DNA of 64,000 nt, from the NCBI GenBank assembly GCA_042408445.1, contig JBHORC010000016.1, forward strand, positions 13,012-77,011. Direction: 5' to 3'. The notes beneath the pieces are model-generated. The model did no database searches, was not told where the DNA came from, and saw only the letters and a program-made list of their open reading frames with translations. This DNA is from Chloroflexota bacterium. GTDB taxonomy: Bacteria; Chloroflexota; Limnocylindria; Limnocylindrales; CSP1-4. Below are positions 20,724 to 58,369 of the stretch, one piece after another (the first letter of the stretch is position 1; each line of letters opens with the position of its first letter). Made by a program: the position numbers and the translations under genes.

Positions 20724-20968
20724 CGCTTCCTCCGGGAGTCTGTCCTGGCTCGGTGGCGACGACCACATCCCTCTGGGCCGGCCGTCACGTGGTACTTCGC
20801 GGGTGTTCGGGACCCCTCCCCCGCGGGCGCTCCTCGGGTCCGTGACTGGCGGCGAGTCTACCACCGGGTCCCACCCGTTCGAGCGTCATCTTGGACACGA
20901 ATCGCTGGAATTCTGCCCGTCCGCCGGCCGGGATCGGTGGCGCCGCGGCCTCCGGACGACCGCCGCGG

Positions 20969-22107: not shown

Positions 22108-22116
22108 GCCGAGACT

Positions 22117-23349: not shown

Positions 23350-23382
23350 GTTCGTCGTCCGTGCCTCCTGGGTGCAGCTGGT

Positions 23383-23706: not shown

Positions 23707-23967
23707 GCCTCAGCGCCCTCTCTCCGGTGCGTTTCGGCAAGGCTACCCGACGGCGACCCCCCGTGCCACGCTGGGCGACCGTGCTCCCTGCGAGCCGCGT
23801 GCCTCGCGGCGGCCTCTCCGGCTGACGCATCCCGCGCGACTGATGTCATCGGCTTCGCCGACGACGAGGTCGCGCGTGCGGCGCAGCCTCCGGGCCGCCG
23901 CGTTGACGGACAGGCAACCTCGCAACCGGAGCCGGGACCTCGACGCGGTCGCGGTCGGGAGCGGCCT

Positions 23968-24834: not shown

Positions 24835-24870
24835 CGCGCGTCCTGGCGCGTCATCGGGACACGGCGGCGG

Positions 24871-26918: not shown

Positions 26919-27030
26919 CGCGTCGAACGGGACCGGGGCGGGCGCGTCTGCTGGCTGCTCCACGCCGTTGATCACCGGCTGCCAGGGACGGCCGGTCGGA
27001 GCGGCGGGCGGGCGGCGCAACGGAGTCCGC

Positions 27031-28191
27031 TCATTCGGCACCCCGCGCGATCGCCTCGACCGTCTCCGCGCTCGGCAACGGCCGCCGCTCGGCCAGCGCC
27101 AGCACGAGCGACGCGACCGCGTCGGCCGCGTGCGGCCGACCGAACCGGCGCGCGGCCGCCGCCATCGACGCCCGCAGCGGCTCGTCGAACAGGATCTCCG
27201 TCGCCGCCACGAGCGCGTCGGCGTCGAATGCCTCGTCCGGGACGATCCGCGCCGCGCCCGACTCGGCGAGAACGGCGGCATTCGCCTCCTGGTGTGCGCC
27301 GGCGTGGGGATACGGCACGAAGACGGCCGGAATCCCGAGGGCGGCAACCTCCGCGACCGTCGACGAGCCTGCCCGACCGACGACGAGATCCGCCGCGACG
27401 AGCGCCGCGAGCATGTCCTCGCGCAGGAACGGATAGGGCCGGTAGCGCGTTCGCCCGTCCGAGGGGAGGCGCTCGCGCTCGGCGAGGGCCGGTGCGTAGG
27501 CCGCCTCGCCCGTGACGTGCAGGATGTGGACGCGGCTCACGAGCCGCGGCAGTGCTGCCGCGACGGCGGCGTTGAAGCGCTTGACGGCCTGGGAGCCACC
27601 GAAGATCAGGACGGTCTTCGCATCGGGCGGCAGGTCGAGCCGCTCGCGCGCGGCCGCGCGCGTGATCCCCGTGACATCGCGGATCGGCGTTCCGGTCACG
27701 AAGGTCGGGACGTGGGCGGCACCGAGCGCGGCGCCCGCCGCCGCATACGACACGGCCAGCGCATCGGACAGCCGGGCCGTCGCCCGGACCGCGCGACCGG
27801 GCGTGGCGTTGCCCTCCCAGAGCACGACGGGGATCCGCAGCGGCGCCGCAGCCATCAGGACCGGCACGGCGACGTAGCCACCGGTCGTGAGGATCGCCGC
27901 GGGCCGTTCCGCGGCGAGGATCGCGGCGGCCTGCGGGACCGACGCGCCGAGGCGGATCGGGTCGAGGACGGCGTGGACGGACAGGTCGACGGTCCGCAGC
28001 GACCGGAGCACGAGCCGGCGGCAGCGGATCCCGGCGTCACGCACGATCCCGGCCTCGAGTCCGCGATGGCCGCCGACCCAGACGAGGTCAGGCGCGGTCG
28101 GACGGTCGGACCGCTCGCGCAGCGAACGCGCCACGGCGAGCGCCGGGAAGATGTGCCCTCCCGTCCCGCCCCCGGCGATCAACAGCCGCAT
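27031..28191 (-). CDS. murG: UDP-N-acetylglucosamine--N-acetylmuramyl-(pentapeptide) pyrophosphoryl-undecaprenol N-acetylglucosamine transferase
   Basis: MRLLIAGGGTGGHIFPALAV with a glycosyltransferase 28 C-terminal domain. Confidence 0.9.
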   Translation of the reverse strand: MRLLIAGGGTGGHIFPALAVARSLRERSDRPTAPDLVWVGGHRGLEAGIVRDAGIRCRRLVLRSLRTVDLSVHAVLDPIRLGASVPQAAAILAAERPAAILTTGGYVAVPVLMAAAPLRIPVVLWEGNATPGRAVRATARLSDALAVSYAAAGAALGAAHVPTFVTGTPIRDVTGITRAAARERLDLPPDAKTVLIFGGSQAVKRFNAAVAAALPRLVSRVHILHVTGEAAYAPALAERERLPSDGRTRYRPYPFLREDMLAALVAADLVVGRAGSSTVAEVAALGIPAVFVPYPHAGAHQEANAAVLAESGAARIVPDEAFDADALVAATEILFDEPLRASMAAAARRFGRPHAADAVASLVLALAERRPLPSAETVEAIARGAE

Positions 28192-29467
28192 CGTTCCAAG
28201 TTCCTCGTTCGACGGTCTCGCGGGAGATCGACAGCAGGGTGCCGACGGCCGCGAGACTGATGGTCAGCGACGAGCCGCCGGCGCTGATGAACGGCAGCGT
28301 GATGCCGGTCACCGGGATGAGCGCGACGACCACGCCGATGTTGATGAACGCCTGGATGCAGAGCCAGGCGGTGATGCCCGCGGCGAGCAGCGCGCCGAAC
28401 GTATCGGGCGCGCCGAGCGCGACGCGGATCCCAGAGTAGGCGAGCCCGACGAAGAGCAGGATCACGACCGCCGCCCCGATCAGCCCGAACTCCTCGCCGA
28501 TGATCGCGAAGATGTAGTCGTTGCTCGCGTTCGGCAGGAACAGGCCACCCGCCAGCCGGCTCTCGCCGAGGCCCGCGCCGAGGATCCCGCCGAGGCCGAG
28601 GGCGAGCAGACCCTGGATCGTGTGGAAGCCGGCGCCGAGCGGATCGGACCACGGGTCGAGCCACGTCCGGATCCGGTCGAGCTGGTAGCCGCGGAGCCCG
28701 ACGGCCACGACCGCGACGAGCGCCGCGAAGCCGACGACCGCGAGGTGGATGAGGCTGCCGCCGGCGACGAAGAACATCGTGAGCCCGGTCAGGCCGATCA
28801 CGATCGTCGTGCCGAGATCCGGCTCCTTGAACACGAGCGCCACGATCGGCACGAGGATGATCAGGAACGGGATCGTGCCGCCCCAGAAGCCCTTCGTCTT
28901 CGAGCCCCGCTTCGCGAACCAATGCGCGAGATACACGATCAGCCCCAGCTTCGCGAACTCGGCGGGGTGGAGCGCCGGCAGCAGCGGCAGCTTCAGCCAA
29001 CGGGCGGACCCGCCCACGACGATGTTCAGCGACGGCACGAAGACGAGGACGAGCAGGACGACGGCGAAGGCGTAGAACGGCACCGAGATGAAGCGGAGAT
29101 AGCGGTAGTCGACGCGCATCATTCCCGCGAGGGCGACCATCCCGAGCGCGGCCCAGCCGATCTGCGGGCCGACGATCGCCAGCGTGTCGTCCGTGGCGAT
29201 GTAGGCCTTCATCGCCGAGCTGGAATAGACCATCAGGATGCCGATCGCGGTCAGCGCGACAACGATCACGAGGATCGCGTAGTCCGCCTGGTGTCGCTCC
29301 CGGTTGAGCGCCGTCGCCTTCTGCCGAGCGGGGGTTCGCGGCGTCGGACCGGTGTCCCGCTCGACGCGTTCGAGCGGGCGGTTCAGGGTGTCGGTCGCCA
29401 CCGTGCCGAGCCGGCCGCCACCGATCCGGCGGACGCCCGGAACGCCGAGACGCGCCGTGTCCCTCAT
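28088..29467 (-). CDS. ftsW: FtsW/RodA (SEDS) family lipid II flippase/peptidoglycan polymerase
   Basis: ~10 TM segments and SEDS motifs (PAEFAKLGLIVYLAHW, SNDYIFAIIGEEFGLIG). Its C-terminal tail overlaps the murG start by ~100 nt. Confidence 0.85.
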   Translation of the reverse strand: MRDTARLGVPGVRRIGGGRLGTVATDTLNRPLERVERDTGPTPRTPARQKATALNRERHQADYAILVIVVALTAIGILMVYSSSAMKAYIATDDTLAIVGPQIGWAALGMVALAGMMRVDYRYLRFISVPFYAFAVVLLVLVFVPSLNIVVGGSARWLKLPLLPALHPAEFAKLGLIVYLAHWFAKRGSKTKGFWGGTIPFLIILVPIVALVFKEPDLGTTIVIGLTGLTMFFVAGGSLIHLAVVGFAALVAVVAVGLRGYQLDRIRTWLDPWSDPLGAGFHTIQGLLALGLGGILGAGLGESRLAGGLFLPNASNDYIFAIIGEEFGLIGAAVVILLFVGLAYSGIRVALGAPDTFGALLAAGITAWLCIQAFINIGVVVALIPVTGITLPFISAGGSSLTISLAAVGTLLSISRETVERGTWNDAAVDRRGRDGRAHLPGARRGAFAARAVRPSDRA

Positions 29468-31038
29468 TCGGTCCTCCCTGTTGCTCGCGGATTGCCCGCC
29501 GCGCGCCGCTCCTCGGCGAGGCCCGCGACCGCCTGCTTGAACGCCCGGCCACGCGCCGCGTAGTCCACGAACATGTCGAAGCTCGCCGCGGCCGGGCTGA
29601 GGAGCACCGTAGCCGGCTCGACCGCTCCGGCGGCGAGCGCTTCCCGGGCGATCGCGTCGGCCGATCGAACCGCGGCTTCCAGGGTCGACGCCCGCTCCGT
29701 TCGCTGGAGGCCGGCCGCCCGGAACCTCGCCTCGAGGTCCGGTCCGCTCTCGCCGATCAGGATCGCTGCAGCCGCCCGCTCGGCGACGACCGGTCCGAGC
29801 ATCGAGAGATCGACGCCCTTGTCCCGGCCGCCGGCAATCAGCACGATGGGCGGGTCGAAGGCGCGGAGCGCCGCGATCACGGCGTCCGGCTGCGTCCCCT
29901 GCGAGTCGTTGACGAAGCGGACGCCGTCGATGAGCGCGACCGGCTCGAGGCGATGCTCAACGCCCGTGAAGCCGGCGGCGCCGCGCCGGATCGCATCGGG
30001 CGCGATCCCGAACAGGAGGGCGGTCGCCACGGCCGCGAGGGCGTTCGACACGTTGTGCGCGCCGGGGATCGCCAGCTCGCCGACGGGCAGGATCCGGCCG
30101 CCGGGGCCCGTCGCCGCTGCGCCGCCACCCACGAGCGGCAGACGGCCGACCCCCGCGGCGACGATCCAGCCGTCCTCGACCCCGACGCCGCCCGGGATCG
30201 GCCGGGCGGTCCGGTACAGGGTCGCGGGCGCCGTACCGAGACCCGCATACGCGGTCACGACCGGGTCGTCCGCGTTCAGGACGAGGGCACCGTCTGGGTC
30301 CACGAGCTCGGCGAGCCGCCGCTTCACGGCCCGGTACCGGCCCACGGATCCATGCCGATCGAGATGATCGGAGGTCACGTTCGTGTAGACCGCGACGGTC
30401 GTGCCGCGGGACAGGGTCGGGAGCTGCAGTTCGCTGAGCTCGATCACGACGCGATGATCCGGCGTGAGCTCCGGCAGGCGCTCGACGAGCGGCACGCCGA
30501 TGTTCCCACCGAGCACGACGGGGTGCGACGGATCCTCGGCGAGCAGCGCCGCGATCAGGGATGAGGTCGTCGTCTTGCCCTTCGTGCCGGTGATCCCGAC
30601 CGTCGGCGCGGGGCACAGACGCAGGAACAGGTCCGGCTCGCTGACGAGCGCGGGGACCGAGGTGTCGCCGCCGAGGCGGCGATCGACGAGGCCCTGGAGC
30701 GCATCGCGGAGGCGCGGCTCCGTCGTCGGATAGTCCGGGTTGATCGACGGCGAGGTGGTGACGAGCGCCGCCCCGTCCCAGGCGCTCGCCGGATCGATGT
30801 CGGGTCCGGCCAGCAGCCCGATCGGCCGGCCGTCGAGCCGACCGCGCGCCTCGTCGAGCTCGGCTTCGGGCCGGCCGTCATAAACGGTCACGACGGCACC
30901 GGCGTCGACGAGGAACCGGGCCAGCGCGATCCCGCTCCGCGCGAACCCGAGCACCGTGATCGGCCGGTCCCGCAAGGCACCGCCGCGGACGTCGTCCAGC
31001 GAGAGCCGATCCAGGTCGATCACCGCGTCCGTCGTCAT
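29464..31038 (-). CDS. murD: UDP-N-acetylmuramoylalanine--D-glutamate ligase
   Basis: Mur ligase motifs (VGITGTKGKTTTSSL, DSQGTQPDAV). The start is ATG 31038 (MTTDAV). The 1116-aa track ORF 29464..32814 is a stop-free read-through and is rejected beyond 31038. Confidence 0.9.
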   Translation of the reverse strand: MTTDAVIDLDRLSLDDVRGGALRDRPITVLGFARSGIALARFLVDAGAVVTVYDGRPEAELDEARGRLDGRPIGLLAGPDIDPASAWDGAALVTTSPSINPDYPTTEPRLRDALQGLVDRRLGGDTSVPALVSEPDLFLRLCPAPTVGITGTKGKTTTSSLIAALLAEDPSHPVVLGGNIGVPLVERLPELTPDHRVVIELSELQLPTLSRGTTVAVYTNVTSDHLDRHGSVGRYRAVKRRLAELVDPDGALVLNADDPVVTAYAGLGTAPATLYRTARPIPGGVGVEDGWIVAAGVGRLPLVGGGAAATGPGGRILPVGELAIPGAHNVSNALAAVATALLFGIAPDAIRRGAAGFTGVEHRLEPVALIDGVRFVNDSQGTQPDAVIAALRAFDPPIVLIAGGRDKGVDLSMLGPVVAERAAAAILIGESGPDLEARFRAAGLQRTERASTLEAAVRSADAIAREALAAGAVEPATVLLSPAAASFDMFVDYAARGRAFKQAVAGLAEERRAAGNPRATGRTE

Positions 31039-31043
31039 CGTCG

Positions 31044-32024
31044 TCACGGCAGCTTCTGGATCGAGGCGAGGAAGAGCGTCACGCCAAGGAGCCCGGCGAG
31101 GATCCCGACGATCCAGAACCGGAGGGTGATCTTCTCCTCGTCCCACCCGGCCAGCTCGAAGTGATGGTGCAACGGCGCCATCCGGAAGATCCGCTTGCCG
31201 CCGCTCAGCTTGAAGTAGCCGATCTGGATGATGTCCGAGCCCGTCTCGATCACGAAGACCAGGCCGATCAATGGCAGGACGAGGATCTGCCCGGTGATCA
31301 GGGCGATCACGGCAAGCGTCGCCCCCAGCGACAGGGACCCCGAATCGCCCATGAAGACCTGCGCGGGGTGGACGTTGAACCAGAGGAAGCCGAGCAGCGC
31401 GCCGATGATCAGCGCGCAGAGGAACGCGAGGTTCGGCTGGGCCGGGACGTTGAGCAGCGCCACGAGAAGGAACGCCACGAACGCGAAGACGAGCGTGCCA
31501 CCGGCGAGCCCATCGAGGCCATCGGTGATGTTCACGCCGTTGCTCGCGGCGATGATCGCGAAGGCCGCGAACAGGACGTAGATGACCGGCTCGATGTGGA
31601 CGGCGCCGACGAATGGCACCGCGATCTGGTCGATCTGGTAGGTGCGCTGGATCATGAACGCCGCCGCGAAGGCGAAGACGACCTGCCACAGGAGCTTCTG
31701 GCGAACCCGGATCCCCTCCCCGGTCTTGGCGTTCAGGTAGTCGTCGAACGCACCGAGCAGCCCGACGCCGGCCAGGGCGGCGAGCGGCGCGTAGATGCCG
31801 CCCTCCGGCGGGAATCGGAGCAGGAGGTACAGGGCGAGGACGACGCCGATCAGCAACGCGCCACCCATCGTCGGGGTGCCGTGCTTGATCTGGTGCGTGT
31901 CCGGGCCCTCGATCCGGATCTGCTTCGTGAAGCCGGCGGTCCGCAGCAGGCGGATGTACGGCGGCATGAGGATCACGACGATCGCGAACGCGAGCAGCAG
32001 ACCCTGGATCAGCTCGACGGTCAT
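31044..32024 (-). CDS. mraY: Phospho-N-acetylmuramoyl-pentapeptide transferase
   Basis: Typical MraY (TPTMGG, NGVNITDGLDGLAGG, MGDSGSLSLG). Confidence 0.95.
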   Translation of the reverse strand: MTVELIQGLLLAFAIVVILMPPYIRLLRTAGFTKQIRIEGPDTHQIKHGTPTMGGALLIGVVLALYLLLRFPPEGGIYAPLAALAGVGLLGAFDDYLNAKTGEGIRVRQKLLWQVVFAFAAAFMIQRTYQIDQIAVPFVGAVHIEPVIYVLFAAFAIIAASNGVNITDGLDGLAGGTLVFAFVAFLLVALLNVPAQPNLAFLCALIIGALLGFLWFNVHPAQVFMGDSGSLSLGATLAVIALITGQILVLPLIGLVFVIETGSDIIQIGYFKLSGGKRIFRMAPLHHHFELAGWDEEKITLRFWIVGILAGLLGVTLFLASIQKLP

Positions 32025-33562
32025 GCCGAGATTCCCGAGTCCGACTCGGTTCGCGGCTCGGGCCGGGCCACCGCCGACGCACCCGCCGACGCACCGGCCG
32101 AGGTCCTCGCGCCGAGGTCCGCGACGAGCTGATCCACGAGGACGTCGAGGCCGATCCCACGTGACGCCTTGACGAGGACGACATCGGCCGGCCGAAGGAG
32201 GTCCAGGAGCACATCCCGCGCGGCTTCGCGATCTCCAACGCGCACGATCGCCTCCGCGGACATCGCGCCGGCGGCGCCATCGGCGATCCCCGCCGCGCCC
32301 GCGCCGACCGCGACCAGGACGTCGGCCCGCTGCGCGGCGTGGGCACCGGTCCGGCGGTGCCCGTCCTCGTGGTCGTCGCCCAGCTCGAGCATCTCGCCGA
32401 GCACGGCCACACGCCGGCCCGGCAGCTCCGAGAGGAGATCGAGCGCCGCCGCAACCGAGCCGGGCGACGCGTTGTAGCTGTCGTCGATGATCGTGACCTC
32501 GCCCGCCCGGACGACCTGGACGCGATGCGGGGCGCTCCAGCCGATCGCGAGCGCATCCACGACCGTATCGAGCCGCATCCCGGCAGCGAGACCCGCGGCC
32601 GCGGCCGCGAGCGCGTTATGGACGGAGAGCGCCCCGAGCGTCGGGATCCGTGCGTTCCGACGCTCGCCGTTGGCGACGAGGGCGAACGCCATCCCCTCGA
32701 CGCCACGCGACTCGACCGCCTCCGCGCGAACATCCGCGTCGGGCGCGAAGCCGTAGAAGACGGCACGGGCGCGCGTCCGGGCGGCCATCCGACGAACGCG
32801 CGGGTCGTCGGCATTCAGGATCGCCACGCCGTCCGCCGGGAGCGCCTCGACGAGCTCGCCCTTCGCCTGCTCGATGGCATCGAGCGTCCCGATCCGGGAC
32901 AGATGGACGGCCTGGACCGCCGTGACGATCCCGATCTCGGGTCGCCCGATGCGGGCGAGGTCGGCGATCTCGCCGCCGACGTACATCCCCATCTCGAGCA
33001 CTGCGGCGCGATGCTCGCCGCGGAGCCGGAGGACCGTCAGCGGAAGGCCGATCTCATTGTTCAGGTTGCCCTCGTTGCGGAGCGTCGGCATCGCGGCGCC
33101 GAGCACGGTCGCGACGGCCTCCTTCGTCGACGTCTTCGCGATCGAGCCGGTGATGCCGACGACGAGCGGGTCGAAGCGTGCCCGCCAGGCCGACGCGACG
33201 GCCTGGAGTCCGATCAGCGGGTCGGGGACGGCGATCACGGTCGCGTCGACGGCCGACAGATCGACATCGTCGGGCGGTCGGGCGACGAGCACGGCGGCGG
33301 CGCCGGCGGCGAGCGCTGCCGCGACGAACCGGTGCCCGTCCGTGTGCTCCCCGGGCAACGCGACGAAGAGGTTGCCGGGCCGGACCTCGCGGGAATCGAC
33401 GGCGCCGTCGCGGACGAGTCGCCCGGAGCGGTGGAGCAGGGATCCGCCCGTCGCCTCGAGCAGGTCGTCGGCGGACAGGCCCCGGTCGGGACCCCCGTCG
33501 ATCGGCAGCGACGGATCCCGACGATCGGTCACGCGGCCCAGTGTCGCACAGGCGCCGCTCAC
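32021..33562 (-). CDS. murF: UDP-N-acetylmuramoyl-tripeptide--D-alanyl-D-alanine ligase
   Basis: Mur ligase domains (VVGITGSIAKTSTKE, DDSYNASPGSVAAAL). An ATGA overlap links it to mraY. Confidence 0.9.
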   Translation of the reverse strand: MSGACATLGRVTDRRDPSLPIDGGPDRGLSADDLLEATGGSLLHRSGRLVRDGAVDSREVRPGNLFVALPGEHTDGHRFVAAALAAGAAAVLVARPPDDVDLSAVDATVIAVPDPLIGLQAVASAWRARFDPLVVGITGSIAKTSTKEAVATVLGAAMPTLRNEGNLNNEIGLPLTVLRLRGEHRAAVLEMGMYVGGEIADLARIGRPEIGIVTAVQAVHLSRIGTLDAIEQAKGELVEALPADGVAILNADDPRVRRMAARTRARAVFYGFAPDADVRAEAVESRGVEGMAFALVANGERRNARIPTLGALSVHNALAAAAAGLAAGMRLDTVVDALAIGWSAPHRVQVVRAGEVTIIDDSYNASPGSVAAALDLLSELPGRRVAVLGEMLELGDDHEDGHRRTGAHAAQRADVLVAVGAGAAGIADGAAGAMSAEAIVRVGDREAARDVLLDLLRPADVVLVKASRGIGLDVLVDQLVADLGARTSAGASAGASAVARPEPRTESDSGISA

Positions 33563-35397
33563 CGGGACGCGGTCGTGGCCGGCGGTGCGTCGTCAGTTCG
33601 GTCGGGCAGGAGGTCGGGCGTCGTGATCGCGTCGTGGGCGATCCGCCGGAACAGCTCGAAGGACATCACCGGCATCTCGAGCTGACCGAGCTTGGCGACG
33701 GTCGGCGTCCCCTCCTCGATCCGGATGGCGACGACGAGATCCGGCCGGCCGGTCTCCCGGGCGATGTAGCCGATGAACGAGTAGTTGAAGATGTCGCGCT
33801 TCCAGCCGCCGTGGCCGCCGTACATCTTCGGGTCCCAGATCTGGGCCGTTCCGGTCTTGCCGCCGACATCGAATCCGGGGATCAGCGTCCGGTCCCGGTA
33901 GAACGGAACGGTCGTGACGACGTGGCGCATCATCCCGATCAGCGTCCCGGACAGGCTCGCGCTGATGACGGTGCCCTTCGCGGAGACCTCGCGGGCGTTC
34001 GTCCCGACGGCCTTCACGACGTGCGGCTGGATCAGGTTGCCGCCGTTGACCATCGCCGAGAACGCGGCGGCGAGCTGCATCGGCGTCACGGCGACACCCT
34101 GGCCGAACGAGCCGTTCGCGAGGTCGATCTGGCGCCACGTTCGCTTCGCCGGGTCGTGGACGATCCCGCCGACCTCACCCGCGAGATCGACGCCGGTCGG
34201 GCTGCCGAAACCGAACCGCGTCCAGGTCGAGTGGAGGATCGTGGCCGCGGTCTTCGTGCTCGGGTCGAGTCCGATCGCGACCTTGGCCGCGACGACGTTC
34301 CTTGAGTAGGCGATCGCGTCCTCGAAGGTCATCATGCCCTTGGCCTTGTGGTCCGCGTCGTCGACGTGCGACTGGCCGCCATCGAGCCGCAGGATGCCGG
34401 TGTCCCGGATCCGCGTCTTCGTCGTGACCTCGCCCCGCTCGAGCGCCGCGACGGAGGTCAGCATCTTGAAGACGGAGCCGGGCTCGTAGGTCGAGCTGAC
34501 GATCGGGTCGATGAACCGGTTGGCGTCGGAGGTCGCGATCGCGGCGTAGTCGTTCGCGTCGTAGGACGGGTACGAGGCCTCCGCGAGGATCTCGCCGGTG
34601 TACGGATTCAGGACGACGGCCGAGACGGACTTCGCCCGATCGGCGGCCCAGGCCGCGAGGATCTCCTGCTCGACGTCCGTCTGGAGCCCCGCGTCGATCG
34701 TCAGCCGGATGTCCTCGCCCGGCGCGCCGGGATCCTGGACGACGGCGGTCTCCGGGATCTGGCGGGAGGCGATGTCGCGCTGCGCCTGGACGATCTTCGG
34801 CCGCCCGGCGAGCTGATCCTGGTAGAACTGCTCGACGCCGTACTGGCCGACGCCTTCGCGGTTGACGAAGCCCATCAGCTTGGCGCCGAGGGTCGTGTTC
34901 GGGGCACCGCCGGGCTGGGGGTAGACCCGGACCGGCTCGGGCTCGAGCGACACGCCCTTCACCAGGCCGGCGTCGATCGCCGACTGGACGCGGGCGGCAA
35001 CGGTCGTGTCGAGGTCGTGGGCGAGGACCACGTACTTGCGCTCGGAGGTCTCGCGATCGGTCAGCGCCTGGGCATCCGCGTCCGCGAGGCCGAGGATTCC
35101 GACCAGCGTCGCGGCGACGTCACGGCGGCGGCTTGCCTCGATCTGCGACGGCGTGGAGATGAGCCGCTGCCGCTCGATCGTCGTCGCCAGGACGACGACA
35201 CCCGTCCGGTCGTAGATGTCGCCGCGCCGGCTCGGGGTGGTCTCCCGGATCGTCGTCTGCTGGAACGCCTCGCCCGCGAGGCGATCGCGCTGGCCGACCT
35301 GCCAGTAGGCGAGGCGGGCGAGCAGGGCCGCGCCGACCGTCGCGAAGACGATCAGCAGGAAGAAGGCGCGGCGCCGCGAATCCGTCCGTCCCATCAT
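33559..35397 (-). CDS. ftsI: Penicillin-binding protein (FtsI-type class B transpeptidase)
   Basis: N-terminal TM segment, PBP dimerisation domain, transpeptidase motifs (STYEPGSVFK-like SxxK, SRN, KTGTAQ). Confidence 0.9.
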   Translation of the reverse strand: MMGRTDSRRRAFFLLIVFATVGAALLARLAYWQVGQRDRLAGEAFQQTTIRETTPSRRGDIYDRTGVVVLATTIERQRLISTPSQIEASRRRDVAATLVGILGLADADAQALTDRETSERKYVVLAHDLDTTVAARVQSAIDAGLVKGVSLEPEPVRVYPQPGGAPNTTLGAKLMGFVNREGVGQYGVEQFYQDQLAGRPKIVQAQRDIASRQIPETAVVQDPGAPGEDIRLTIDAGLQTDVEQEILAAWAADRAKSVSAVVLNPYTGEILAEASYPSYDANDYAAIATSDANRFIDPIVSSTYEPGSVFKMLTSVAALERGEVTTKTRIRDTGILRLDGGQSHVDDADHKAKGMMTFEDAIAYSRNVVAAKVAIGLDPSTKTAATILHSTWTRFGFGSPTGVDLAGEVGGIVHDPAKRTWRQIDLANGSFGQGVAVTPMQLAAAFSAMVNGGNLIQPHVVKAVGTNAREVSAKGTVISASLSGTLIGMMRHVVTTVPFYRDRTLIPGFDVGGKTGTAQIWDPKMYGGHGGWKRDIFNYSFIGYIARETGRPDLVVAIRIEEGTPTVAKLGQLEMPVMSFELFRRIAHDAITTPDLLPDRTDDAPPATTASR

Positions 35398-35413
35398 CGG
35401 CTTTGGCGATGCG

Positions 35414-35788
35414 TCAGCGGACGACGAGCGGAGCGGACAGCTGCGTCAGGCCGGCATCGATCGCGAGCTTGCGAACCGCGGGTGCCTGCCCCAGCCGGTT
35501 GAGGTCCGTCAGGAGCTCGGACTTGCGGACGAGGAGCGCGTCCCGCTGTTCGCTGAGCTTCGCCATGTCGTACCCGGTCGCCGACACGCGCATCGTCTGG
35601 GCGAGCGAGAAGAAGGCGAGGACGAACGCGACGACGATCGTGCCGAGCATGATCGGGAGACGGTTCGTCCGGCGCCGCGCGCGAACGGCGCCGCGAACGC
35701 GTCGCCGCGGCAGGGTCGGCGCATCGACGACGCGCGATCGCTGCGGGAGGAACGAGGAACGGGGGCGCGCCCCGGAGTAGACGGCCAC
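35414..35788 (-). CDS. ftsL: Cell division protein FtsL (septum formation initiator family)
   Basis: Basic N-terminus, one TM segment (LPIMLGTIVVAFVLAFFSL), then a coiled-coil-like segment (MAKLSEQRDALLVRKSELLTDLNRL). The GTG start overlaps the preceding stop (TAGTG). Confidence 0.7.
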   Translation of the reverse strand: MAVYSGARPRSSFLPQRSRVVDAPTLPRRRVRGAVRARRRTNRLPIMLGTIVVAFVLAFFSLAQTMRVSATGYDMAKLSEQRDALLVRKSELLTDLNRLGQAPAVRKLAIDAGLTQLSAPLVVR

Positions 35789-35988
35789 TACTCGCCCAGC
35801 GCGAAGCGAAGACGCGGGGTCCGCGGGTCGAGGAACGCGAGCGGGTCCGCCGCCGTTGACGCGCCGAAGCCGTCGCGGTCGAGCTCGTCCTCGGTCGGTT
35901 GGTGCCGCCGGACCGACTGCCGCTCGTGCAGCTCGTGCTGACGTCGTCCGTAGGTCCGTCGGCGGCTGGACTGGTGTCGCTTGCTCAC
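35788..35988 (-). CDS. Small basic hypothetical protein (66 aa) between rsmH and ftsL
   Basis: A GTG start at 35986-35988 is preceded by a strong SD AGGAGGAG (4-nt spacer). GC3 is ~85%. Its stop overlaps the ftsL GTG by 1 nt (TAGTG), suggesting translational coupling. The product is VSKRHQSSRRRTYGRRQHELHERQSVRRHQPTEDELDRDGFGASTAADPLAFLDPRTPRLRFALGE. Confidence 0.4.
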   Translation of the reverse strand: MSKRHQSSRRRTYGRRQHELHERQSVRRHQPTEDELDRDGFGASTAADPLAFLDPRTPRLRFALGE

Positions 35989-36028
35989 GGGACTCCTCCT
36001 CTCGATCGACTGGCTGGCTGGCGTTCGG

Positions 36029-36976
36029 TCAGGCGGCGAGCCGCTCGGCGGCTCGGAGGCGGGCGCTGCGGGCCCGCGGGTTGGCAGCGATCTCGGCATC
36101 GGTGGGCGTCAGCGACGGCCGCGTCACGAGGCGCAGTCGCGGGTTCCGGCCGCAGACGCAGACCGGCAGCTCCGGCGGGCAGATGCAGCCGCGCCGTTCG
36201 GCGGCGATGAACCGCTTGACGATCCGATCCTCGAGCGAGTGGTAGCTCAGGACGACGAGCCGGCCGCCGGGCCGCAGCAGATCCATCGAGGCGGCGAGCC
36301 CCTCCTGGAGCGCATCGAGCTCGGCGTTGACGGCGATCCGGAGCGCCTGGAACACACGGGTCGCGGGGTGGATGCGGCGCCGGATGCGGGGGTTGCCCGG
36401 GGCGACGCGCTCGACGAGGGCGGCGAGCTCTTCGGCCGTCGTGATCGGCGTCGTCGCGCGCGTCGCAACGATCGCGCGGGCGATCCGGCCGGCCTGCGGC
36501 TCCTCGCCGTAGCGCTTGAGGAGCGCAGTCAGCTCGCCGGCGTCGAGCGTCGCGAGCAGCTCGGACGCCGGGACGCCGCGGCTCGCATCGAACCGCATGT
36601 CGAGCGGGCCGCCGGTCCGGAAGCCGAAGCCGCGCTCGCGGTCGGCCAGCTGGAAGCTCGACAGCCCGAGATCGAACAGCATCCCGTCGACGGCCGCAAA
36701 GCCGGAATCCGGCGCGACCGCCGCGAGCTCGCGGAAGTTCGCCTGACGGAGGACGAGTCGGTCGCCGAATCGTGGCCCCAGGCGGCCAGCGACTCTGGCG
36801 ATGGCCGCCCCGTCGGCGTCGAGTCCGAGGAGGCGGCCATCAGGGTTGCTCGCCTCCAGGATCCGCTCGGTGTGCCCACCGCCGCCGAGGGTGGCGTCGA
36901 TGTGAAGGCTGCCGGGGGCAGGTGCGAGCATCGACATGACCTCCTCCACCAGCACCGGCAGGTGCCCTTCCTGCAT
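36029..36976 (-). CDS. rsmH: 16S rRNA (cytosine1402-N4)-methyltransferase
   Basis: SAM-binding motifs (IDATLGGGGH, FDLGLSSFQLADRERGFGFR). The start is ATG 36976 (MQEGHLPVLV). The upstream 120 aa of the track ORF are rejected. Confidence 0.9.
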   Translation of the reverse strand: MQEGHLPVLVEEVMSMLAPAPGSLHIDATLGGGGHTERILEASNPDGRLLGLDADGAAIARVAGRLGPRFGDRLVLRQANFRELAAVAPDSGFAAVDGMLFDLGLSSFQLADRERGFGFRTGGPLDMRFDASRGVPASELLATLDAGELTALLKRYGEEPQAGRIARAIVATRATTPITTAEELAALVERVAPGNPRIRRRIHPATRVFQALRIAVNAELDALQEGLAASMDLLRPGGRLVVLSYHSLEDRIVKRFIAAERRGCICPPELPVCVCGRNPRLRLVTRPSLTPTDAEIAANPRARSARLRAAERLAA

Positions 36977-37058
36977 CACTCCTCCACCTTCGACGGACGG
37001 ATCCCGAGCGGACCCTGGAAGCGCATGTGGTCGGCCCGCGGCTGCGCGGGCGAGTCGT

Positions 37059-37487
37059 TCAGATGCCGAGGCCTCCGATGGCCCGGGCGAGGGCGTCCGG
37101 ATCCTCGAGGCTCCGGCGGTACGACTCCCAGCGGTCGGGAGCCCAGATCTCGGCGTGATCGCGGGTGCCGACGACGACGGCCTCGCTGCCGAGGCCCGCC
37201 ATGTCGCGCAGGTAGCCGGGGATGAGGACGCGGCCCTGGCCGTCGAGGGTCGACTCGACGGCGCCGGCGAAGATGAAGCGCTCGAAGAGCCGGGCGTTGC
37301 CATCGGTGATCGGCAGCGTCGCGACCTTCTCGGCAAGGGCGTCCCAGCTCGCCCGGGTGTGGATCGCGAGGCAGTTCTCCAGCCAGCGCGAGACGACCAG
37401 TCCGGCGTCCAGCTGGGCGCGGAACTTCGACGGGACGGCGAGCCGTCCCTTGTCGTCCACCGTGTGCCGGTACTCGCCGGTGAACAC
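37059..37487 (-). CDS. mraZ: Transcriptional regulator MraZ
   Basis: Two SpoVT/AbrB-like MraZ halves (FTGEYRHTVDDKGRLAVPSKFR, LDGQGRVLIPGYLR). The start was chosen at the GTG giving VFTGEY, the canonical MraZ N-terminus; the track start at 37568 would overlap its own operator repeats. Confidence 0.85.
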   Translation of the reverse strand: MFTGEYRHTVDDKGRLAVPSKFRAQLDAGLVVSRWLENCLAIHTRASWDALAEKVATLPITDGNARLFERFIFAGAVESTLDGQGRVLIPGYLRDMAGLGSEAVVVGTRDHAEIWAPDRWESYRRSLEDPDALARAIGGLGI

Positions 37488-37564
37488 CTGAGGGGCTTCC
37501 CCTGTGCGGGTGCGCTGCCTGGTCAGGCGATCGACGTGGTGAGGGGTCCTGTTGGGGTTGTTCC

Positions 37565-52626: not shown

Positions 52627-53154
52627 TCAACCCAGGACAACGAGGAGGTCGCCGACCTCGATCGTCTGCCCCTCCCCGACCGCGACCCGTTCGACACGCC
52701 CCGCCCGGGGCGCCCGCAGCTCGTTCTGCATCTTCATCGCCTCCACGACGAGCAGCGTCTGGCCGGCCTCGACGTCGTCGCCGCCCGTCACCCGGACCGC
52801 CGCCACCCGTCCCGGAATGATCGCCCGGATGTCGACCGGTGCGCTCGGCCCCGCCGCATGGGCTCCGCGGGTCGCCCGCTCGCGGAGCGCCGCGCGCGCC
52901 GCGTCCTCGACGTCGAGCTCGAACCGCCAACCGTCGACGACGACCTCGAGGCGGGAGTGGCCGTGGTCGGGGGCGGCGAGCGGGGTCACGATCGCGGCGC
53001 GGGCGGGTGCCGTCGGGCCGGCGCCGGGTGGCCGGATCGCGGCGTCGCCCGTCGGCGACAGGTCGATCGACGGGGCGTCGACGGATCCGGGCTCCAGCTC
53101 GACTGGGTCCGCGTTGGGGTCCGCGACGAGCGAGACCCGGACGGGGCCGGTCAT
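52627..53154 (-). CDS. Biotin carboxyl carrier / biotin-lipoyl attachment domain protein of an acyl-CoA carboxylase
   Basis: The C-terminal biotinyl domain has an EAMKM motif. The start is ATG 53154, forming an ATGA overlap with the biotin carboxylase stop. Confidence 0.8.
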
Positions 53155-54785
53155 CGCGGCCGCCGGTCCAGGGCGGCCGCCCGTCCCGCACGGGCCCACC
53201 CTGATGGTCCGCCGCGCGGGGCCGCCGGTGCGCCGGCCGGTGGCCGGGTAGCGGGCGCGCCGGCCGTGGCGGCCCCGGCCGCAGCGGCGACCCAGCGGGC
53301 GACCTCGAGGGCCTCGGCCCGTCCCTCGACGAGGGCACTTGCCCAGTGCTCGTCCACCCAGTCGATCGACGGCGGGCCGGCGCGGAAGAGGTCGCTCCGG
53401 ACGAGGAAGCGGTGGAAGGGCAGCGTCGTCTGGATCCCGGCCACTTCGGCCTCGTCCAGCGCACGCTCGAGCCGGTCCAGCGCCCGGCCCCGGTCGGCGT
53501 CGACGACCAGGAGCTTGGCGATCAGCGGGTCATAGTCGGGCGGGACCCGGTCTCCGGACCGAATCGCCGTGTCGACGCGGACGCCGGGACCGCCGGGCAT
53601 GTGCCACCGTGTCACCGTCCCGGGCGTCGGGGCGAAGGCGCGGGCCGGGTCCTCCGCCGAGAGCCGGACCTCGATCGCGTGACGCGGCGGGTCGGCGGCA
53701 GCGGCCGCGGCGGCGACCACTCCTTCGGACAGCGGCCGCCCGGCCGCGAGGAACAGCTGCTCACGGACGATGTCGATGTCGGCCACCAGCTCAGTCACGC
53801 CGTGCTCGACCTGGAGTCGGGTGTTGACCTCGAGGAACCAGAACCGGCGGTCGGGGTCGAACAGGAACTCCGCGGTCGCCGCGTTCTCCAACCCGGCGGC
53901 GCGCGCGGCGCGGACGGCCATCCCGTGCAGGTCGCCGCGCTCCTCGGCCGTGAGTCCGGGCGCCGGCGCCTCCTCCACGAGCTTCTGATGCCGCCGCTGG
54001 ACCGAGCAGTCGCGCTCGCCTACGGCGACGATCGTCCCGCCGCGGTCGCCCAGCAGCTGGACCTCGATGTGGCGTGCCGGCCGGATCTCCCGCTCCAGGT
54101 AGACGGTCCCGTCGCCGAACGCGGACCGGGCCTCGGCGGCCGCGGCGGTCAGCGACGCCGGCAGATCCGACTCACCCGGGACGCGACGCATCCCCCGCCC
54201 TCCCCCGCCGGCCGCGGCCTTGACGAGGAGCGGATAGCCGACGCGTCGAGCCACGGTCGCGATGGCGTCGAGCGCGTCGGGCCGGTCGATCTCCGCCGCC
54301 TCGAGGGTGCCCGGGACGACCGGCACACCGGCCGCGGCCGCCGACCGGCGCGCCGCGAGCTTGTCGCCGAGGGCCGCGATGGAGGCGCTCGACGGGCCGA
54401 CGAACACAAGACCGGCCCCCTCCACGGCCGCGGCGAACGCGGCCCGTTCGGACAGGAAGCCGTAGCCGGGATGGACCGCCTCGGCGCCCGTCGCGACGGC
54501 GGCCTCGATGATCGCCTCGCCTCGGAGATAGCTCTCGGCCGCGGGCGGCGGGCCAAGGCGAACGGCCTGGTCCGCCGCCCGGACGTGAGCCGCGTTCGCA
54601 TCTGCGTCGCTGTAGACGGCGACGGTCTCGATGCCCAGCTCACGGCACGCCCGGATGATGCGGAGGGCGATCTCCCCCCGGTTCGCGATGAGGACCCTGC
54701 CGAAGGGACGGTCCGGGCGTGGTCCGTCTTTGCGCAAAGACGCCCGGCGGTCGGCGTCCCTCCCCGAGTGCGCGGCATCCGTCAA
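53151..54785 (-). CDS. Biotin carboxylase subunit of acyl-CoA (propionyl-CoA) carboxylase
   Basis: ATP-grasp biotin carboxylase ([41 protein letters not shown]). The TTG start overlaps the pccB stop. The N-terminus contains palindrome 1 (residues ASLRKDG). Confidence 0.9.
54725..54742. promoter_or_regulatory. Palindrome 1: CGTCTTTGCGCAAAGACG (18-bp perfect inverted repeat)
   Basis: Seen directly in sequence. It encodes SLRKD in frame near the 5' end of the biotin carboxylase gene. Exact coordinates come from the ORF frame. Confidence 0.6.
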
Positions 54786-56383
54786 AGGGGAATGTTCCCG
54801 TGCTTCTTCGGCGGGTTCGTGTCCCGCTTCGTCGCGAGCACATCCAGTGCCGCGATGAGTCGCGGCCGCGTCTCGGACGGGAGGATGACGTCGTCGAGGT
54901 AGCCGCGCGCCGCGGCGATGTAGGGATGGGCGAACCGTGCGCGGTACTCGTCGACGAGGCGGCGCTGTTCGGCTGCCGCATCAGCGGCCCCATCGATCTG
55001 GTCGCGGTAGATGACGTTCACCGCGCCGTCGGCGCCCATGACGGCAATCTCTGCGGTCGGCCACCCGACGTTGAGGTCGCCGCGAAGATGCTTGCTGCTC
55101 ATGACGTCGTATGCGCCGCCGTAAGCCTTGCGGGTGATGACGGTCAGCTTTGGAACCGTCGCCTCTGCGTAGGCGAACAGCAGCTTCGCGCCGTGCCGGA
55201 TGATTCCGCCGTGCTCCTGGTCGACACCGGGAAGGAAGCCGGGAACGTCGACGAAGGTCACGAGCGGAACGTTGAAGCAGTCGCAGGTCCGGACGAAGCG
55301 CGCCGCTTTCGTCGACGCCGCGATGTCGAGCGCCCCGGCGAGGACGGAGGGTTGCTGCGCGACGATCCCGACACTCCGGCCGGCGAGTCGACCGAACCCG
55401 ACGAGGATGTTCTGCGCCCAGTCCGGCTGGATCTCGAGGAAGGTTCCGTCGTCGACGACGCGCCGAATGACCTCGTGCATGTCGTAGGCGAGACTCGGGT
55501 CGTCCGGGACGATGTCGTTCAGGTCGGCGTCGCGACGATCCGCCGGATCCGTCCACTCGGTCCGCGGAGGGTCGTCGACGTTGTTCTGCGGGAGGTAGGC
55601 CAGGATTTCGCGAACCGTCTCGAGCGCCGCAGCCTCGTCCGGCGTCGCGATGTGGGCGACGCCGCTGACGGACGTGTGCGTTGCCGCTCCGCCGAGACGC
55701 TCCGCGTCGACGTCCTCGTGGGTGACCGCGCGGACGACGTTCGGGCCGGTGACGAACATGTAGCTCGTCCCCTCCACCATCACGGTGAAGTCGGTGATCG
55801 CCGGCGAGTAGACCGCTCCCCCGGCGCACGGCCCCATGACGACGGAGAGCTGCGGAACGACGCCCGACGCCAGCGTGTTGCGGAGGAAGATGTCGGCGTA
55901 TCCACCGAGCGACACGACGCCTTCCTGGATCCGCGCCCCACCCGAGTCGTTCAATCCGATGATCGGCGCTCCGACCTTCATCGCCAGATCCATCAGCTTG
56001 CAGACCTTGGCGGCATACGCCTCGGACAGTGAGCCACCGAAGACGGTGAAGTCCTGACTGAAGACGAACACGACTCGCCCATCGATCGTTCCATGGCCGG
56101 TCACCACACCGTCGCCGAGAATCGCGTCGGGGTCGCTGTCCGCGCCCCGCGCCGTGACGAATGCATCGATCTCGACGAACGACCCCGGGTCGAGCAGGAG
56201 ATCGATTCGTTCGCGGGCGGTCAGCTTGCCGCGGGCATGCTGCTGGTCGACGCGCGCCTCGCCGCCTCCCTCGAGCGACCGAGCGCGCATCGACGCGAGA
56301 CGCGCGGCGCCGCCGTCGTTGTTCACGGAGTCGTCGTCATGGGCCCACTCCCGTTCGCTGTCTTTGCGCAAGGACAGATGCAC
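54782..56383 (-). CDS. Propionyl-CoA / acyl-CoA carboxylase carboxyltransferase (beta) subunit
   Basis: [27 protein letters not shown] and two carboxyltransferase domains. GTG start. Codons 3-8 (LSLRKDS) are encoded by palindrome 2. Confidence 0.9.
56358..56377. promoter_or_regulatory. Palindrome 2: CTGTCTTTGCGCAAGGACAG (20 bp, 1 mismatch)
   Basis: It overlaps the first codons of the carboxyltransferase gene (SLRKD again), ~90 nt from the DnaA-box pair. Confidence 0.6.
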
Positions 56384-56462
56384 AGGTCAACGTCCGACCG
56401 ATGATAGAGGTGGGCGATCGCGCGAATGCACCGCGAATCGGGGGCCGCTCGGCCTCTGTCAC

Positions 56463-56504
56463 ATATCCACAAAATGGTGAACAACTCGCCGGATCTGTGG
56501 ATAA
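56463..56504. promoter_or_regulatory. Pair of convergent DnaA boxes (ATATCCACA ... TGTGGATAA) in an AT-rich stretch of the pccB-parA intergenic region
   Basis: Box 1 is at 56463-56471 (8/9 to TTATCCACA). Box 2 is at 56496-56504 (perfect complement of TTATCCACA). The intervening aaaatggtgaacaac is unusually AT-rich for this genome. Confidence 0.5.
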
Positions 56505-56586
56505 CGTCGTCGCCCGCCCACCTGGTCGGAGGAGTAGCATCACGGCCAGTCCCCGTCCGACGCGTCGACCCGTCCGACGCCGATTC

Positions 56587-57378
56587 ATGCTTCGAGGTGA
56601 TGCCCCGGTGACGCAGGTGATCGCGATTGCGAACCAGAAGGGCGGAGTCGGCAAGACGACGACAGCCATCAATCTCGCGGGCGCCCTCGAGGAGGAGGGC
56701 TATCGCATTCTCTGCATCGACATGGACCCGCAGGCGAATCTGACGGCGGGCCTGGGAATCAACCTGAACACGGTCGACAAGTCGATGGCTGACGTCCTCG
56801 CGGACGGACGCGCGACCCTCGCCGACGTTGTTCGACCGACGGACAGCGCGGGGATCGACATCGCGCCTGCGAACATCGACCTCGCAAGCACCGAGGGTGA
56901 GCTGTTCACCGCCCTCGGCCGCGAGCAGGTCCTGCGCGATGCGCTCGAGGGCCAGGTCGGCGTCTACGACTTCGTCCTGATCGACTGCCCGCCAAACCTC
57001 GGCCTCCTGACCGTCAACGGCCTGGTCGCTGCGAACAGCGTGATCATCCCCGTCCAGACCCAGTACTACGCGATGAAGGGCCTGAACAACCTGGTCAAGG
57101 TCATCAACATGATCCGGATGAAGTTGAACCGCGACCTTCGGATCCTCGGCCTGCTGCCAACCTTCTTCGACAGCCGAACGAACCTCGCGCGGGACATGCT
57201 GGACGAGCTGCGCGTCGTCGGCGATCACCACGTGTTCAGCAGCATCATCCGGAACACGGTGAAGCTCGGCGAGGCCCCCCTCGCCGGACGGCCGATCACG
57301 TCCTACGCCGGCGCCTCAGAAGCGGCGCGGACCTATCGCGAGCTTGCCCGTGAGGTGATCGACCTTGGCCAGGCCTGA
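56587..57378 (+). CDS. parA: Chromosome partitioning ATPase ParA/Soj
   Basis: Deviant Walker A (IAIANQKGGVGKTTTAINLA), ParA-type motifs (DMDPQANLT, LIDCPPNLGLLT). The start is ATG 56587 (MLRGDAPVTQVIAI). Confidence 0.9.
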   Translation: MLRGDAPVTQVIAIANQKGGVGKTTTAINLAGALEEEGYRILCIDMDPQANLTAGLGINLNTVDKSMADVLADGRATLADVVRPTDSAGIDIAPANIDLASTEGELFTALGREQVLRDALEGQVGVYDFVLIDCPPNLGLLTVNGLVAANSVIIPVQTQYYAMKGLNNLVKVINMIRMKLNRDLRILGLLPTFFDSRTNLARDMLDELRVVGDHHVFSSIIRNTVKLGEAPLAGRPITSYAGASEAARTYRELAREVIDLGQA

Positions 57379-58369
57379 TTTCCGCGCCGTCGCAGCACGA
57401 CGCCTCGCCGAGGATCGCGAACTCTCACCCGCGATCGTCAGCCTGCTCAGCTCGGACAAGGTGGGCCGGGCGACTGGCATCAAGATCCTGCCGATCGACC
57501 GGATCGAGTCGAACCCGCAGCAGCCCCGGATGGTGTTCGACGAGGACGCCCTCCACGAGCTCGCCGGCTCCATCAAGGAGCACGGTGTCCTCCAGCCCAT
57601 CCTCGTCCGACCGCTCGGCGAGAACCGATACCAGCTGATCGCCGGTGAGCGTCGCTGGCGCGCGACGCGTGAAGCCGGCCTCACGACGATCCCGGCGCTC
57701 GTCGAGGAGATGGACGACGACACCGCCCTGGAGATCTCGATCATCGAGAACCTCCAGCGCGAGGACCTCTCGCCGCTCGAAGAAGCCTCGATGTACGACC
57801 GAATGATCCACGAGCACGGGTACAGCATCCGGAAGCTCGCGGAGAAGCTCGGCAAGGACAAGGGCTATCTGGAGAACCGCCTTCGCCTCGCCGATGCGCC
57901 GGAGGAGATCCGGCAGCTCGTGTCCTTGCGCAAAGACACGCTCTCGCACGCCTACGAACTGCTGAAGGTCGACGACCCGAAGAAGCGGCGGAAGCTGGCG
58001 GCCCAGGTCGCCGCCGGCGAGCTGTCGCTGGTGAAGCTCCGCGAGCGGATCGAGGGTCGCCGACCCCATCTCGTCGACGACGCGGTCACGGAGCTCCCGG
58101 CTCCGACCACCCTCGACCGTGACGAGGACGCCGCGGCCGGCTGGGAGGCGCCCGCCGAGGCGTCCGGCCCGCTGGGGGACGATTCCCTCGTGCAGGCGCG
58201 ACATCAGCTCAACGAGGCGGTCGAGGATCTGGTTTCCGTCTTGCGGTCGCCGGACGTCGTCCGGTCGATCCCCGACGTGGATCGGGCGAACCTCGCGAAG
58301 TACCTGACGATCGCCAAGCTGAAGCTCGAGAACGCGATCGCCGTCGTCCGGACGGGCGACCCCGGCTGA
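57365..58369 (+). CDS. parB: Chromosome partitioning protein ParB/Spo0J
   Basis: ParB box (QPRMVFDEDALHELAGSIKEHGVLQPILVRP), HTH (SIRKLAEKLGKDKGYLENRLRL), C-terminal dimerisation region. The TTG start overlaps the parA end (GTG at VGRATG is an alternative). It contains palindrome 3. Confidence 0.85.
   Translation: MARPDFRAVAARRLAEDRELSPAIVSLLSSDKVGRATGIKILPIDRIESNPQQPRMVFDEDALHELAGSIKEHGVLQPILVRPLGENRYQLIAGERRWRATREAGLTTIPALVEEMDDDTALEISIIENLQREDLSPLEEASMYDRMIHEHGYSIRKLAEKLGKDKGYLENRLRLADAPEEIRQLVSLRKDTLSHAYELLKVDDPKKRRKLAAQVAAGELSLVKLRERIEGRRPHLVDDAVTELPAPTTLDRDEDAAAGWEAPAEASGPLGDDSLVQARHQLNEAVEDLVSVLRSPDVVRSIPDVDRANLAKYLTIAKLKLENAIAVVRTGDPG
57920..57939. promoter_or_regulatory. Palindrome 3: GTGTCCTTGCGCAAAGACAC (20 bp, 1 mismatch) inside parB
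   Basis: It encodes VSLRKDT at ParB residues 186-192, in the same reading frame and peptide as copies 1 and 2. Confidence 0.6.

Follow-up and report, generated by a model that had tools for sequence, protein, structure and literature searches.

In a 64-kb stretch of DNA from a Chloroflexota bacterium of the class Limnocylindria (the whole stretch is hereafter called the window), three copies of a 16-bp palindrome lie in and beside the parA-parB operon. We consider it likely that this palindrome, whose perfect form is GTCTTTGCGCAAAGAC, acts as the parS of the main-chromosome ParABS system in one large Limnocylindria clade, where it would replace the canonical parS, TGTTNCACGTGAAACA. This reading is supported because the palindrome is conserved at syntenic positions in over 60 genomes, is under selection at the level of the DNA within parB, and occurs where canonical parS is absent and the residues with which ParB contacts parS are altered. 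Three roles had been put forward for the palindrome in the original prediction (a non-canonical centromere resembling parS, a set of operators for an unknown regulator, and a short in-frame palindromic insertion element), and it is the first of them that these observations support. Note that we infer the link between ParB and the site from their co-localisation and from the altered contact residues, that is, from sequence.

A search of the window with GTCYTTGCGCAARGAC returned exactly three matches (Table 1), and no more were found when two mismatches were allowed. Shuffled windows are expected to contain 0.03 such matches, and none of 100 shuffles reached three; the core, TTGCGCAA, was present in the window only at the three palindromes, with 0.21 occurrences expected. 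Both the clustering of three copies at the positions first proposed for them and their great rarity by chance were therefore borne out. The genes at the palindromes are, in order, those for methylmalonyl-CoA mutase, biotin carrier protein, biotin carboxylase and carboxyltransferase, all on the minus strand, followed by parA and parB on the plus strand. Copy 1, 41 nucleotides (nt) past the stop codon of the carboxyltransferase gene, falls in a leader at the N-terminus of the biotin carboxylase that is poorly conserved. Copy 2 lies between a conserved -10-like TATCAT, just upstream of it, and the GTG at which the carboxyltransferase gene probably starts, ~34 nt farther downstream, and copy 3 occupies the codons equivalent to residues 193-198 of Caulobacter ParB. 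Copies 2 and 3 are reverse complements of one another, each with one asymmetric pair (T4/G13).

A search for ParB in species-representative genomes yielded 64 loci on contigs of up to 2.57 Mb, with ParB proteins 50-84% identical; all but one of these loci are from Limnocylindria/Chloroflexota metagenome-assembled genomes. Counts of the motif cover 63 related genomes together with the window, 1.09 Mb in total, in which there were 121 exact copies and 46 one-mismatch copies of the 16-mer. All but one of the copies with two or fewer mismatches were syntenic, either inside parB or within ~5 kb of it. (The lone exception, at locus L059, has one mismatch and lies 6.4 kb downstream of parB.) The site inside parB was present in 64/64 loci with two or fewer mismatches, at nt 551-569 of the gene. 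Other syntenic copies precede parA or mark the 5' end of the biotin carboxylase gene (~52 related loci, again with two or fewer mismatches) and, in some genomes, its 3' end; each locus carries 2-4 copies. The fourth site at the 3' end, found in L020, L021, L022, L024, L026 and others, falls within the C-terminal tail of the biotin carboxylase, a variable segment, ~18 nt before the start of the biotin carrier gene. (Here too the translation is SLRKD, with a conserved tail, W..AGR..A.DRWPR, after it; the window has no such copy.) In an alignment of the relatives the 16-mer forms a block of near-maximal information whose flanks carry almost none, and in a de novo count of palindromes the 16-mer motif was the most recurrent 12-mer and 14-mer palindrome. 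Another recurrent palindrome, GTCGTCCGGACGAC, was rejected as merely conserved coding sequence of the mutase gene.

An exact-pattern scan of metagenomes identified 120 contigs, 64 of which represent the parAB locus and contain 82 sites. The remaining 56 contigs have one copy each on unrelated G+C backgrounds (0.32-0.72), and 24 of these 56 copies are the C4/G13 double variant, a form never found at the parAB locus. Taken with the syntenic copies in the genomes, these single background matches therefore indicate that the motif is specific to the locus and is not a dispersed repeat. Moreover, in four genome loci and four metagenome contigs the mutase gene adjoins parA with no propionyl-CoA carboxylase (pcc) gene between them, and the sites within parB and ahead of parA are both kept. 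Because both sites persist where the mutase replaces the pcc genes, the sites are associated with parAB and not with the carboxylase genes. The parA-parB operon itself is conserved in 60/64 loci, and the remaining four end at a contig edge before parA.

These findings bear on the idea that the palindrome is a short mobile element, either of the repetitive extragenic palindromic (REP) kind or an in-frame insertion like the Rickettsia palindromic elements. Such an element would account for a short palindrome that is tolerated in coding sequence, in the single SLRKD frame, in three coding contexts. We regard it as exceedingly improbable, since a locus has no more than 2-4 copies, at positions common to more than 60 species, with none elsewhere in the window, and since conservation stops at 16 bp, ParB carries no insertion relative to canonical ParBs and the off-locus metagenome matches look like background. 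The in-frame insertion element is therefore rejected, its supposed copies being ancient and syntenic in position rather than dispersed. Likewise, the scattering that would mark a generic REP-like repeat and the absence from orthologous positions that would mark a recent insertion are both at odds with what was found.

The copy inside parB is truly coding (V-S-L-R-K-D), and S-(L/V)-R-K-D sits in a very conserved part of the ParB helix-turn-helix region. Because these amino acids are themselves highly conserved, we examined the synonymous positions. The lysine of the site is encoded by AAA in 53/62 sequences, as compared with 14/444 codons (3%) at other lysine columns, and the leucine by TTG in 40/45, as compared with ~4% elsewhere. 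The preceding valine is GTG in 62/62, whereas other valine columns favour GTC; the arginine is CGC in 61/62, whereas other arginine columns are mixed; and the serine is always TCY, never TCG or AGC. In 17/62 species the TTG has become GTG, giving L195V. Third codon positions in the genome are ~90% G+C (the window as a whole is ~72% G+C), and the fixation of rare codons against such a background shows that selection acts on the nucleotides of the site in parB. (In L061 the parB frame breaks exactly at the internal palindrome, at ~10552-10700, which is probably an assembly or consensus indel.)

The upstream copies differ in their coding status. Among relatives the frame of the carboxyltransferase-proximal copy relative to the gene is random (20/17/11) and stop codons are present in some, so that this copy is non-coding and lies in a 5' untranslated region (UTR); that it can be read as SLRKD in the window is a coincidence. 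In contrast, the biotin-carboxylase copy, which lies 15-45 nt past the carboxyltransferase stop codon in relatives, keeps its frame in 45/52 loci and is, judging from this frame conservation, probably translated as part of an otherwise unconserved N-terminal leader; in more distant genomes, where an ATG farther downstream serves as the biotin carboxylase start, the site falls between the genes. Thus the proposal that SLRKD is encoded in three different proteins held for ParB and probably for the biotin carboxylase leader, and failed for the carboxyltransferase. In all three coding contexts (parB, carboxylase leader and carboxylase tail) the frame used is always the one giving the hydrophilic SLRKD, never VFAQR or LCAK, and tolerance in flexible segments accounts for this uniformity well enough.

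The location of SLRKD within a highly conserved stretch of the ParB helix-turn-helix could be taken to mean that it is the peptide that is conserved, or that the copies resemble one another by chance. We find either explanation scarcely credible, given that the synonymous positions are fixed to rare codons, that the carboxyltransferase-proximal copy is non-coding and that the rest of the leader peptide into which the biotin-carboxylase copy is translated lacks conservation, and given that chance is excluded by the shuffles described above.

The manner in which the sites depart from symmetry distinguishes between recognition as DNA and folding into a structure. In 179 sites all departures from symmetry are one-sided and none is compensatory: pair 4-13 is TA in 83 sites, TG in 55, CA in 41 and CG in 0, and pair 5-12 is TA in 142, GA in 24, TC in 9 and CA in 4. 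The arm GTCTTTGC occurs 214 times and the arm GTCCTTGC 83 times; at least one consensus arm is kept in every site, and there is no site with two weak arms. One-sided degeneracy of this type fits a DNA-binding protein that acts as a dimer and requires one good arm, and does not fit a hairpin. A structural nucleic-acid element, such as an intercistronic RNA hairpin, a processing site or a DNA cruciform, would be in keeping with the self-complementarity of the sequence and with the presence of two or three copies at cistron boundaries of one operon. We nevertheless judge it very unlikely: besides the lack of compensatory changes, the sense-strand RNA of copies 2 and 3 has a C.A mismatch, predicted fold energies are like those of shuffled sequences (z-scores -0.25 to -0.8), and one copy sits mid-gene on the opposite strand. 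The RNA hairpin was rejected on the first and third of these grounds.

Some genomes (L015, L020, L021, L033 and L060) have variant arms that are shared among their sites; GTCYGTAC, for example, is present in all three sites of L015, and the centres of the L033 sites drift to TTACGTAA. These shared arms hint at a concerted change of the sites within a genome. We found no change among the ParB contact residues that matches these within-genome variants.

The protein encoded by parB contains a ParB_N domain (Pfam PF02195, E = 4e-38), with the CTP-binding motif LIAGERRWRA and IIENLQREDL in its translation, and a HTH_ParB domain (PF17762, E = 2e-19); the ParB CTP-clamp motifs, GERRWRA and ENLQRED, are intact. 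It is 40-48% identical to canonical ParBs, and aligns with 6T1F (Caulobacter ParB), 6SDK, 1VZ0 and 4UMK without a gap across the DNA-binding region and with no insertion at SLRKD. Canonical ParBs with GKSR...GHAR appear only from ~45% identity downward. Contacts with parS have been described for Q162, G170, K171, S172, R173, N178, G201 and R204 (Jalal et al. 2020, PMC7383237), and R173 and G201 are reported to be invariant in ParB orthologues. Five of these listed contacts are changed relative to Caulobacter 6T1F (Q162I, S172D, R173K, G201S and R204Y), as are two further residues (T179R and A184D), and the resulting I162, D172, K173, R179, D184, S201 and Y204 are fixed across the clade. On this evidence the protein is a member of the ParB family with a predicted non-canonical specificity set, in which neither R173 nor G201 is retained. 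Note that the palindrome inside parB ends three residues before contact residue 201.

Canonical parS (TGTTNCACGTGAAACA) was not found in the window or in the 1.09 Mb of related loci when up to three mismatches were allowed (0 matches in each). The Limnocylindria palindrome nevertheless has the general properties of a parS-type site, being 16 bp long with a central CG and present in several copies in and beside parAB. Like the canonical chromosomal systems of Bacillus (Spo0J), Caulobacter and Thermus, the Limnocylindria system consists of a parA-parB operon on the main chromosome whose ParB has ParB_N (GERRxRA and ENLQRE) and HTH_ParB domains, and, as with canonical parS, one copy of the site lies within parB and the others within a few kb. 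Unlike those systems, its neighbours are the pcc and mutase genes rather than the rsmG/jag/dnaA region, its ParB contact residues differ as described above, and its site agrees with canonical parS only in the central CG and in two A's of each arm.

The site is built like proven non-canonical centromeres, notably those of secondary replicons. The parS of Burkholderia cenocepacia chromosome 2 is given as gTTTATGCGCATAAAc in a review (PMC7022226); it matches the palindrome at 12/16 bases and has the TGCGCA core in common, whereas the arms differ at positions 3, 5, 12 and 14. The Bsr centromere has been defined as a 16-bp palindrome whose 5' arm is T-rich and whose 6-bp core consists of 2C/2G/1A/1T around a central CG (PMC5450999). 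GTCTTT/GC GC/AAAGAC fits this definition, and in the Bsr systems of Burkholderiales secondary replicons several copies likewise cluster near parAB; the Limnocylindria site, however, is on a main chromosome rather than a secondary replicon and belongs to an unrelated phylum. With respect to the protein, the top matches among solved structures were Noc structures, and the KorB structure 8QA8 was matched at E = 1.6e-16. Noc and its binding site (NBS, ATTTCCCGGGAAAT) provide a case in which a helix-turn-helix of the ParB fold has been naturally re-specified via positions 173, 179, 184 and 201. Unlike Noc, the Limnocylindria ParB has a ParA partner, carries K173/R179/D184/S201 where Noc has Q/K/K/R, and would have a different target. 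KorB of plasmid RK2 is a ParB-family CTPase that acts as a global repressor at the palindrome OB, TTTAGCSGCTAAA. It resembles the Limnocylindria system in being a ParB-family protein with palindromic sites at promoters, and so offers a possible parallel, speculative as to regulation, for the pcc promoter/5' UTR copy. It differs from that system in the length and sequence of its site, in being plasmid-borne and in its KorA partner; no KorA was seen at the Limnocylindria locus. In the literature searched, neither a Limnocylindria parS nor a non-canonical chromosomal parS had been described before.

An alignment of the region between the carboxyltransferase gene and parA revealed five conserved blocks, namely the palindrome, TATCAT, the DnaA-box pair, TAGCAT and the parA ribosome-binding site. 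On the carboxyltransferase strand the -10-like TATCAT lies 7-30 nt upstream of the palindrome, so that transcription of the pcc operon would begin at the palindrome or ahead of it, leaving the site in the 5' UTR. (A scan of the intergenic region for sigma-70 promoters and terminators gave no match; the -10-like boxes come from the alignment.) The position of this copy is thus the classical one for a repressor, and raises the alternative that a dimeric transcription factor distinct from ParB uses the palindrome as its operator to control the genes for propionyl-CoA carboxylase and methylmalonyl-CoA mutase, and perhaps parAB as well. Consistent with this alternative, upstream copies are found at the 5' ends of the carboxyltransferase gene, the biotin carboxylase gene and sometimes the carrier-protein gene, or of the mutase gene in the alternative architecture. 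We think it improbable all the same. The most conserved copy (64/64) is 557 nt inside parB and is kept there by rare codons, which a metabolic operator leaves unexplained; two of the upstream positions are within a translationally coupled operon (stop/start overlap), where a promoter is not expected; and the site upstream of parA persists without the pcc genes. In addition, no regulator gene was present among the annotated neighbours in the window and in four sister-clade loci (not all loci were screened). Thus the operator role raised in the original prediction could still apply to the upstream copies, and does not account for the one in parB.

Several observations weigh against the identification of the palindrome as parS. 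First, one cistron after another of a single metabolic pathway (carboxyltransferase, biotin carboxylase, and carrier protein or mutase) has an upstream copy at its 5' end, a pattern that is operator-like. Second, no ParB substitution follows the minor variants of the site between species. Third, a sister Limnocylindria clade (L186-L189, parB at ~10001-10930) had no copy, with up to four mismatches, within 10 kb on either side of parAB and none in parB. Because this clade lacks copies within that distance, the same type of ParB can evidently exist without nearby copies. The ParB proteins of the sister clade are 308-313 aa long and are encoded in a different gene neighbourhood, and their recognition region is near-identical (GKDKGY.ENRLRL...AAYEL and VA(A/Q)RYDT(L/I)(S/T)(A/H)AYEL), with K173, R179 and Y204 kept; where the main clade has S(L/V)RKD the sister clade has A(A/Q)RYD. 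We found no shared alternative palindrome or repeated k-mer near parAB in the sister clade, and extension of the motif to this clade was rejected, which limits our claim to the main clade. (A tRNA gene lies directly upstream of parA in the sister clade.)

K173 is not confined to these two clades. A rarer ParB subfamily (P0148, P0151, P0153, P0159 and P0271-P0277) has GKGKGY(I/V)E.RLRL...RPDTLTHARE, in which K173 replaces R173, and the ParB of a Chlorohelix plasmid (L065) is of the GKDK type; no obvious related palindrome was found for the latter. Together, the sequences of the rarer subfamily and of the Chlorohelix ParB point to a wider, non-canonical K173 branch of ParB proteins.

If the palindrome is parS, each monomer of a CTP-bound ParB dimer would read one 8-bp arm (GTCTTTGC) through the re-specified helix-turn-helix. 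Binding at 3-4 sites spaced ~1.5 kb apart would close the CTP clamp, whereupon ParB may slide off the sites to fill a partition complex of ~5-8 kb over the pcc-parAB locus, on which ParA would act to bring about chromosome segregation.

Table 1 Palindromes, DnaA boxes and adjoining genes in the window
Feature	Position	Strand	Remarks
Palindrome copy 1, GTCTTTGCGCAAAGAC	54726..54741		Perfect; 18-bp palindrome with flanks (54725-54742)
Palindrome copy 2, GTCTTTGCGCAAGGAC	56360..56375		Carboxyltransferase-parA intergenic region
Palindrome copy 3, GTCCTTGCGCAAAGAC	57922..57937	+	Inside parB, codons (V)-S-L-R-K-D of the helix-turn-helix domain
Inverted DnaA-box pair	56463..56504		ATATCCACA at 56463-56471 (+), TTATCCACA at 56496-56504 (-), conserved GGTGAACAAC between
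Biotin carboxylase gene	53151..54785	-	TTG start overlaps carboxyltransferase TGA stop (TTGA)
Carboxyltransferase gene, PccB-like	54782..56326	-	Start probably GTG 56326, not the mechanical open reading frame start at 56383
parA, Soj-type Walker ATPase	56608..57378	+	Likely start GTG 56608, 7 nt past conserved Shine-Dalgarno GAGGTGA
parB, 334 aa	57365..58369	+	ParB_N and HTH_ParB domains

The DnaA boxes that had been noticed beside copy 2 are real and form a conserved inverted pair (Table 1). They are the only DnaA boxes in the window; in 1.06 Mb of related loci this pair makes up 113/121 of the boxes found, and it is kept in ~60 loci. A -10-like TAGCAT for parA (56535-56540) lies ~30 nt downstream of the pair. 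The window contains neither a dnaA gene nor an AT-rich unwinding element, and its skew does not switch clearly anywhere. The arrangement looks promoter-like rather than origin-like, and suggests that the pair may be an element of the parA promoter, with DnaA controlling transcription of parAB, more than part of an origin.

Concerning the genes themselves, the start assigned to the carboxyltransferase gene agrees with the alignment of relatives, in which the conserved N-terminus begins at (V/L)PTN(D/E)ER, and the start of parB overlaps the 3' end of parA. In the window (54782-54785) and in relatives the biotin carboxylase gene starts at a TTG or GTG that shares bases with the carboxyltransferase stop codon (TTGA/GTGA) and is in frame across variable, unconserved leaders, an overlap that suggests translational coupling. 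(Some relatives seem to start the biotin carboxylase at an ATG 17 nt inside the 3' end of the carboxyltransferase gene.) Elsewhere the window contains a complete dcw-type cluster for cell division and cell-wall synthesis at 19494-37522 (mraW, a penicillin-binding protein, Mur ligases, ftsW, murB, ftsQ, ftsA and ftsZ), and also encodes enzymes of the tricarboxylic acid (TCA) cycle and the glycine-cleavage genes. The dcw cluster is entirely on the minus strand, 20-35 kb away from parAB, and nearly all genes to the left of 56.4 kb are on that strand. The dcw cluster with ftsZ and the TCA-cycle genes, together with related contigs of up to 2.57 Mb, indicate that the window is DNA of a main chromosome. 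Plasmid collections held no close relative by DNA or by protein, and a plasmid-type system was rejected for that reason.

Chromosomal parS is regarded as almost universal, and an exception on a main chromosome is notable for that reason. In a bolder form, which we consider doubtful, the lineage would have swapped its main-chromosome centromere and placed one new parS inside the DNA-binding codons of ParB itself, and through the pcc promoter/5' UTR copy ParB would, in the manner of KorB, also regulate the propionyl-CoA carboxylase pathway and so tie it to segregation. Since the internal site is written into helix-turn-helix codons 193-198, a mutation in it also changes the protein (e.g. L195V). 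Scans of genomes for canonical parS would wrongly call lineages of this type centromere-less. The change of seven residues in the reading head of ParB (I162, D172, K173, R179, D184, S201 and Y204) makes the route of the switch testable with purified protein and oligonucleotides, and the pair of ParB and site, if it is what we propose, would be a candidate orthogonal ParB/parS system for DNA-labelling tools. It would also constitute a natural third specificity state, beside ParB/parS and Noc/NBS, in a lineage that is widespread in soil and freshwater.

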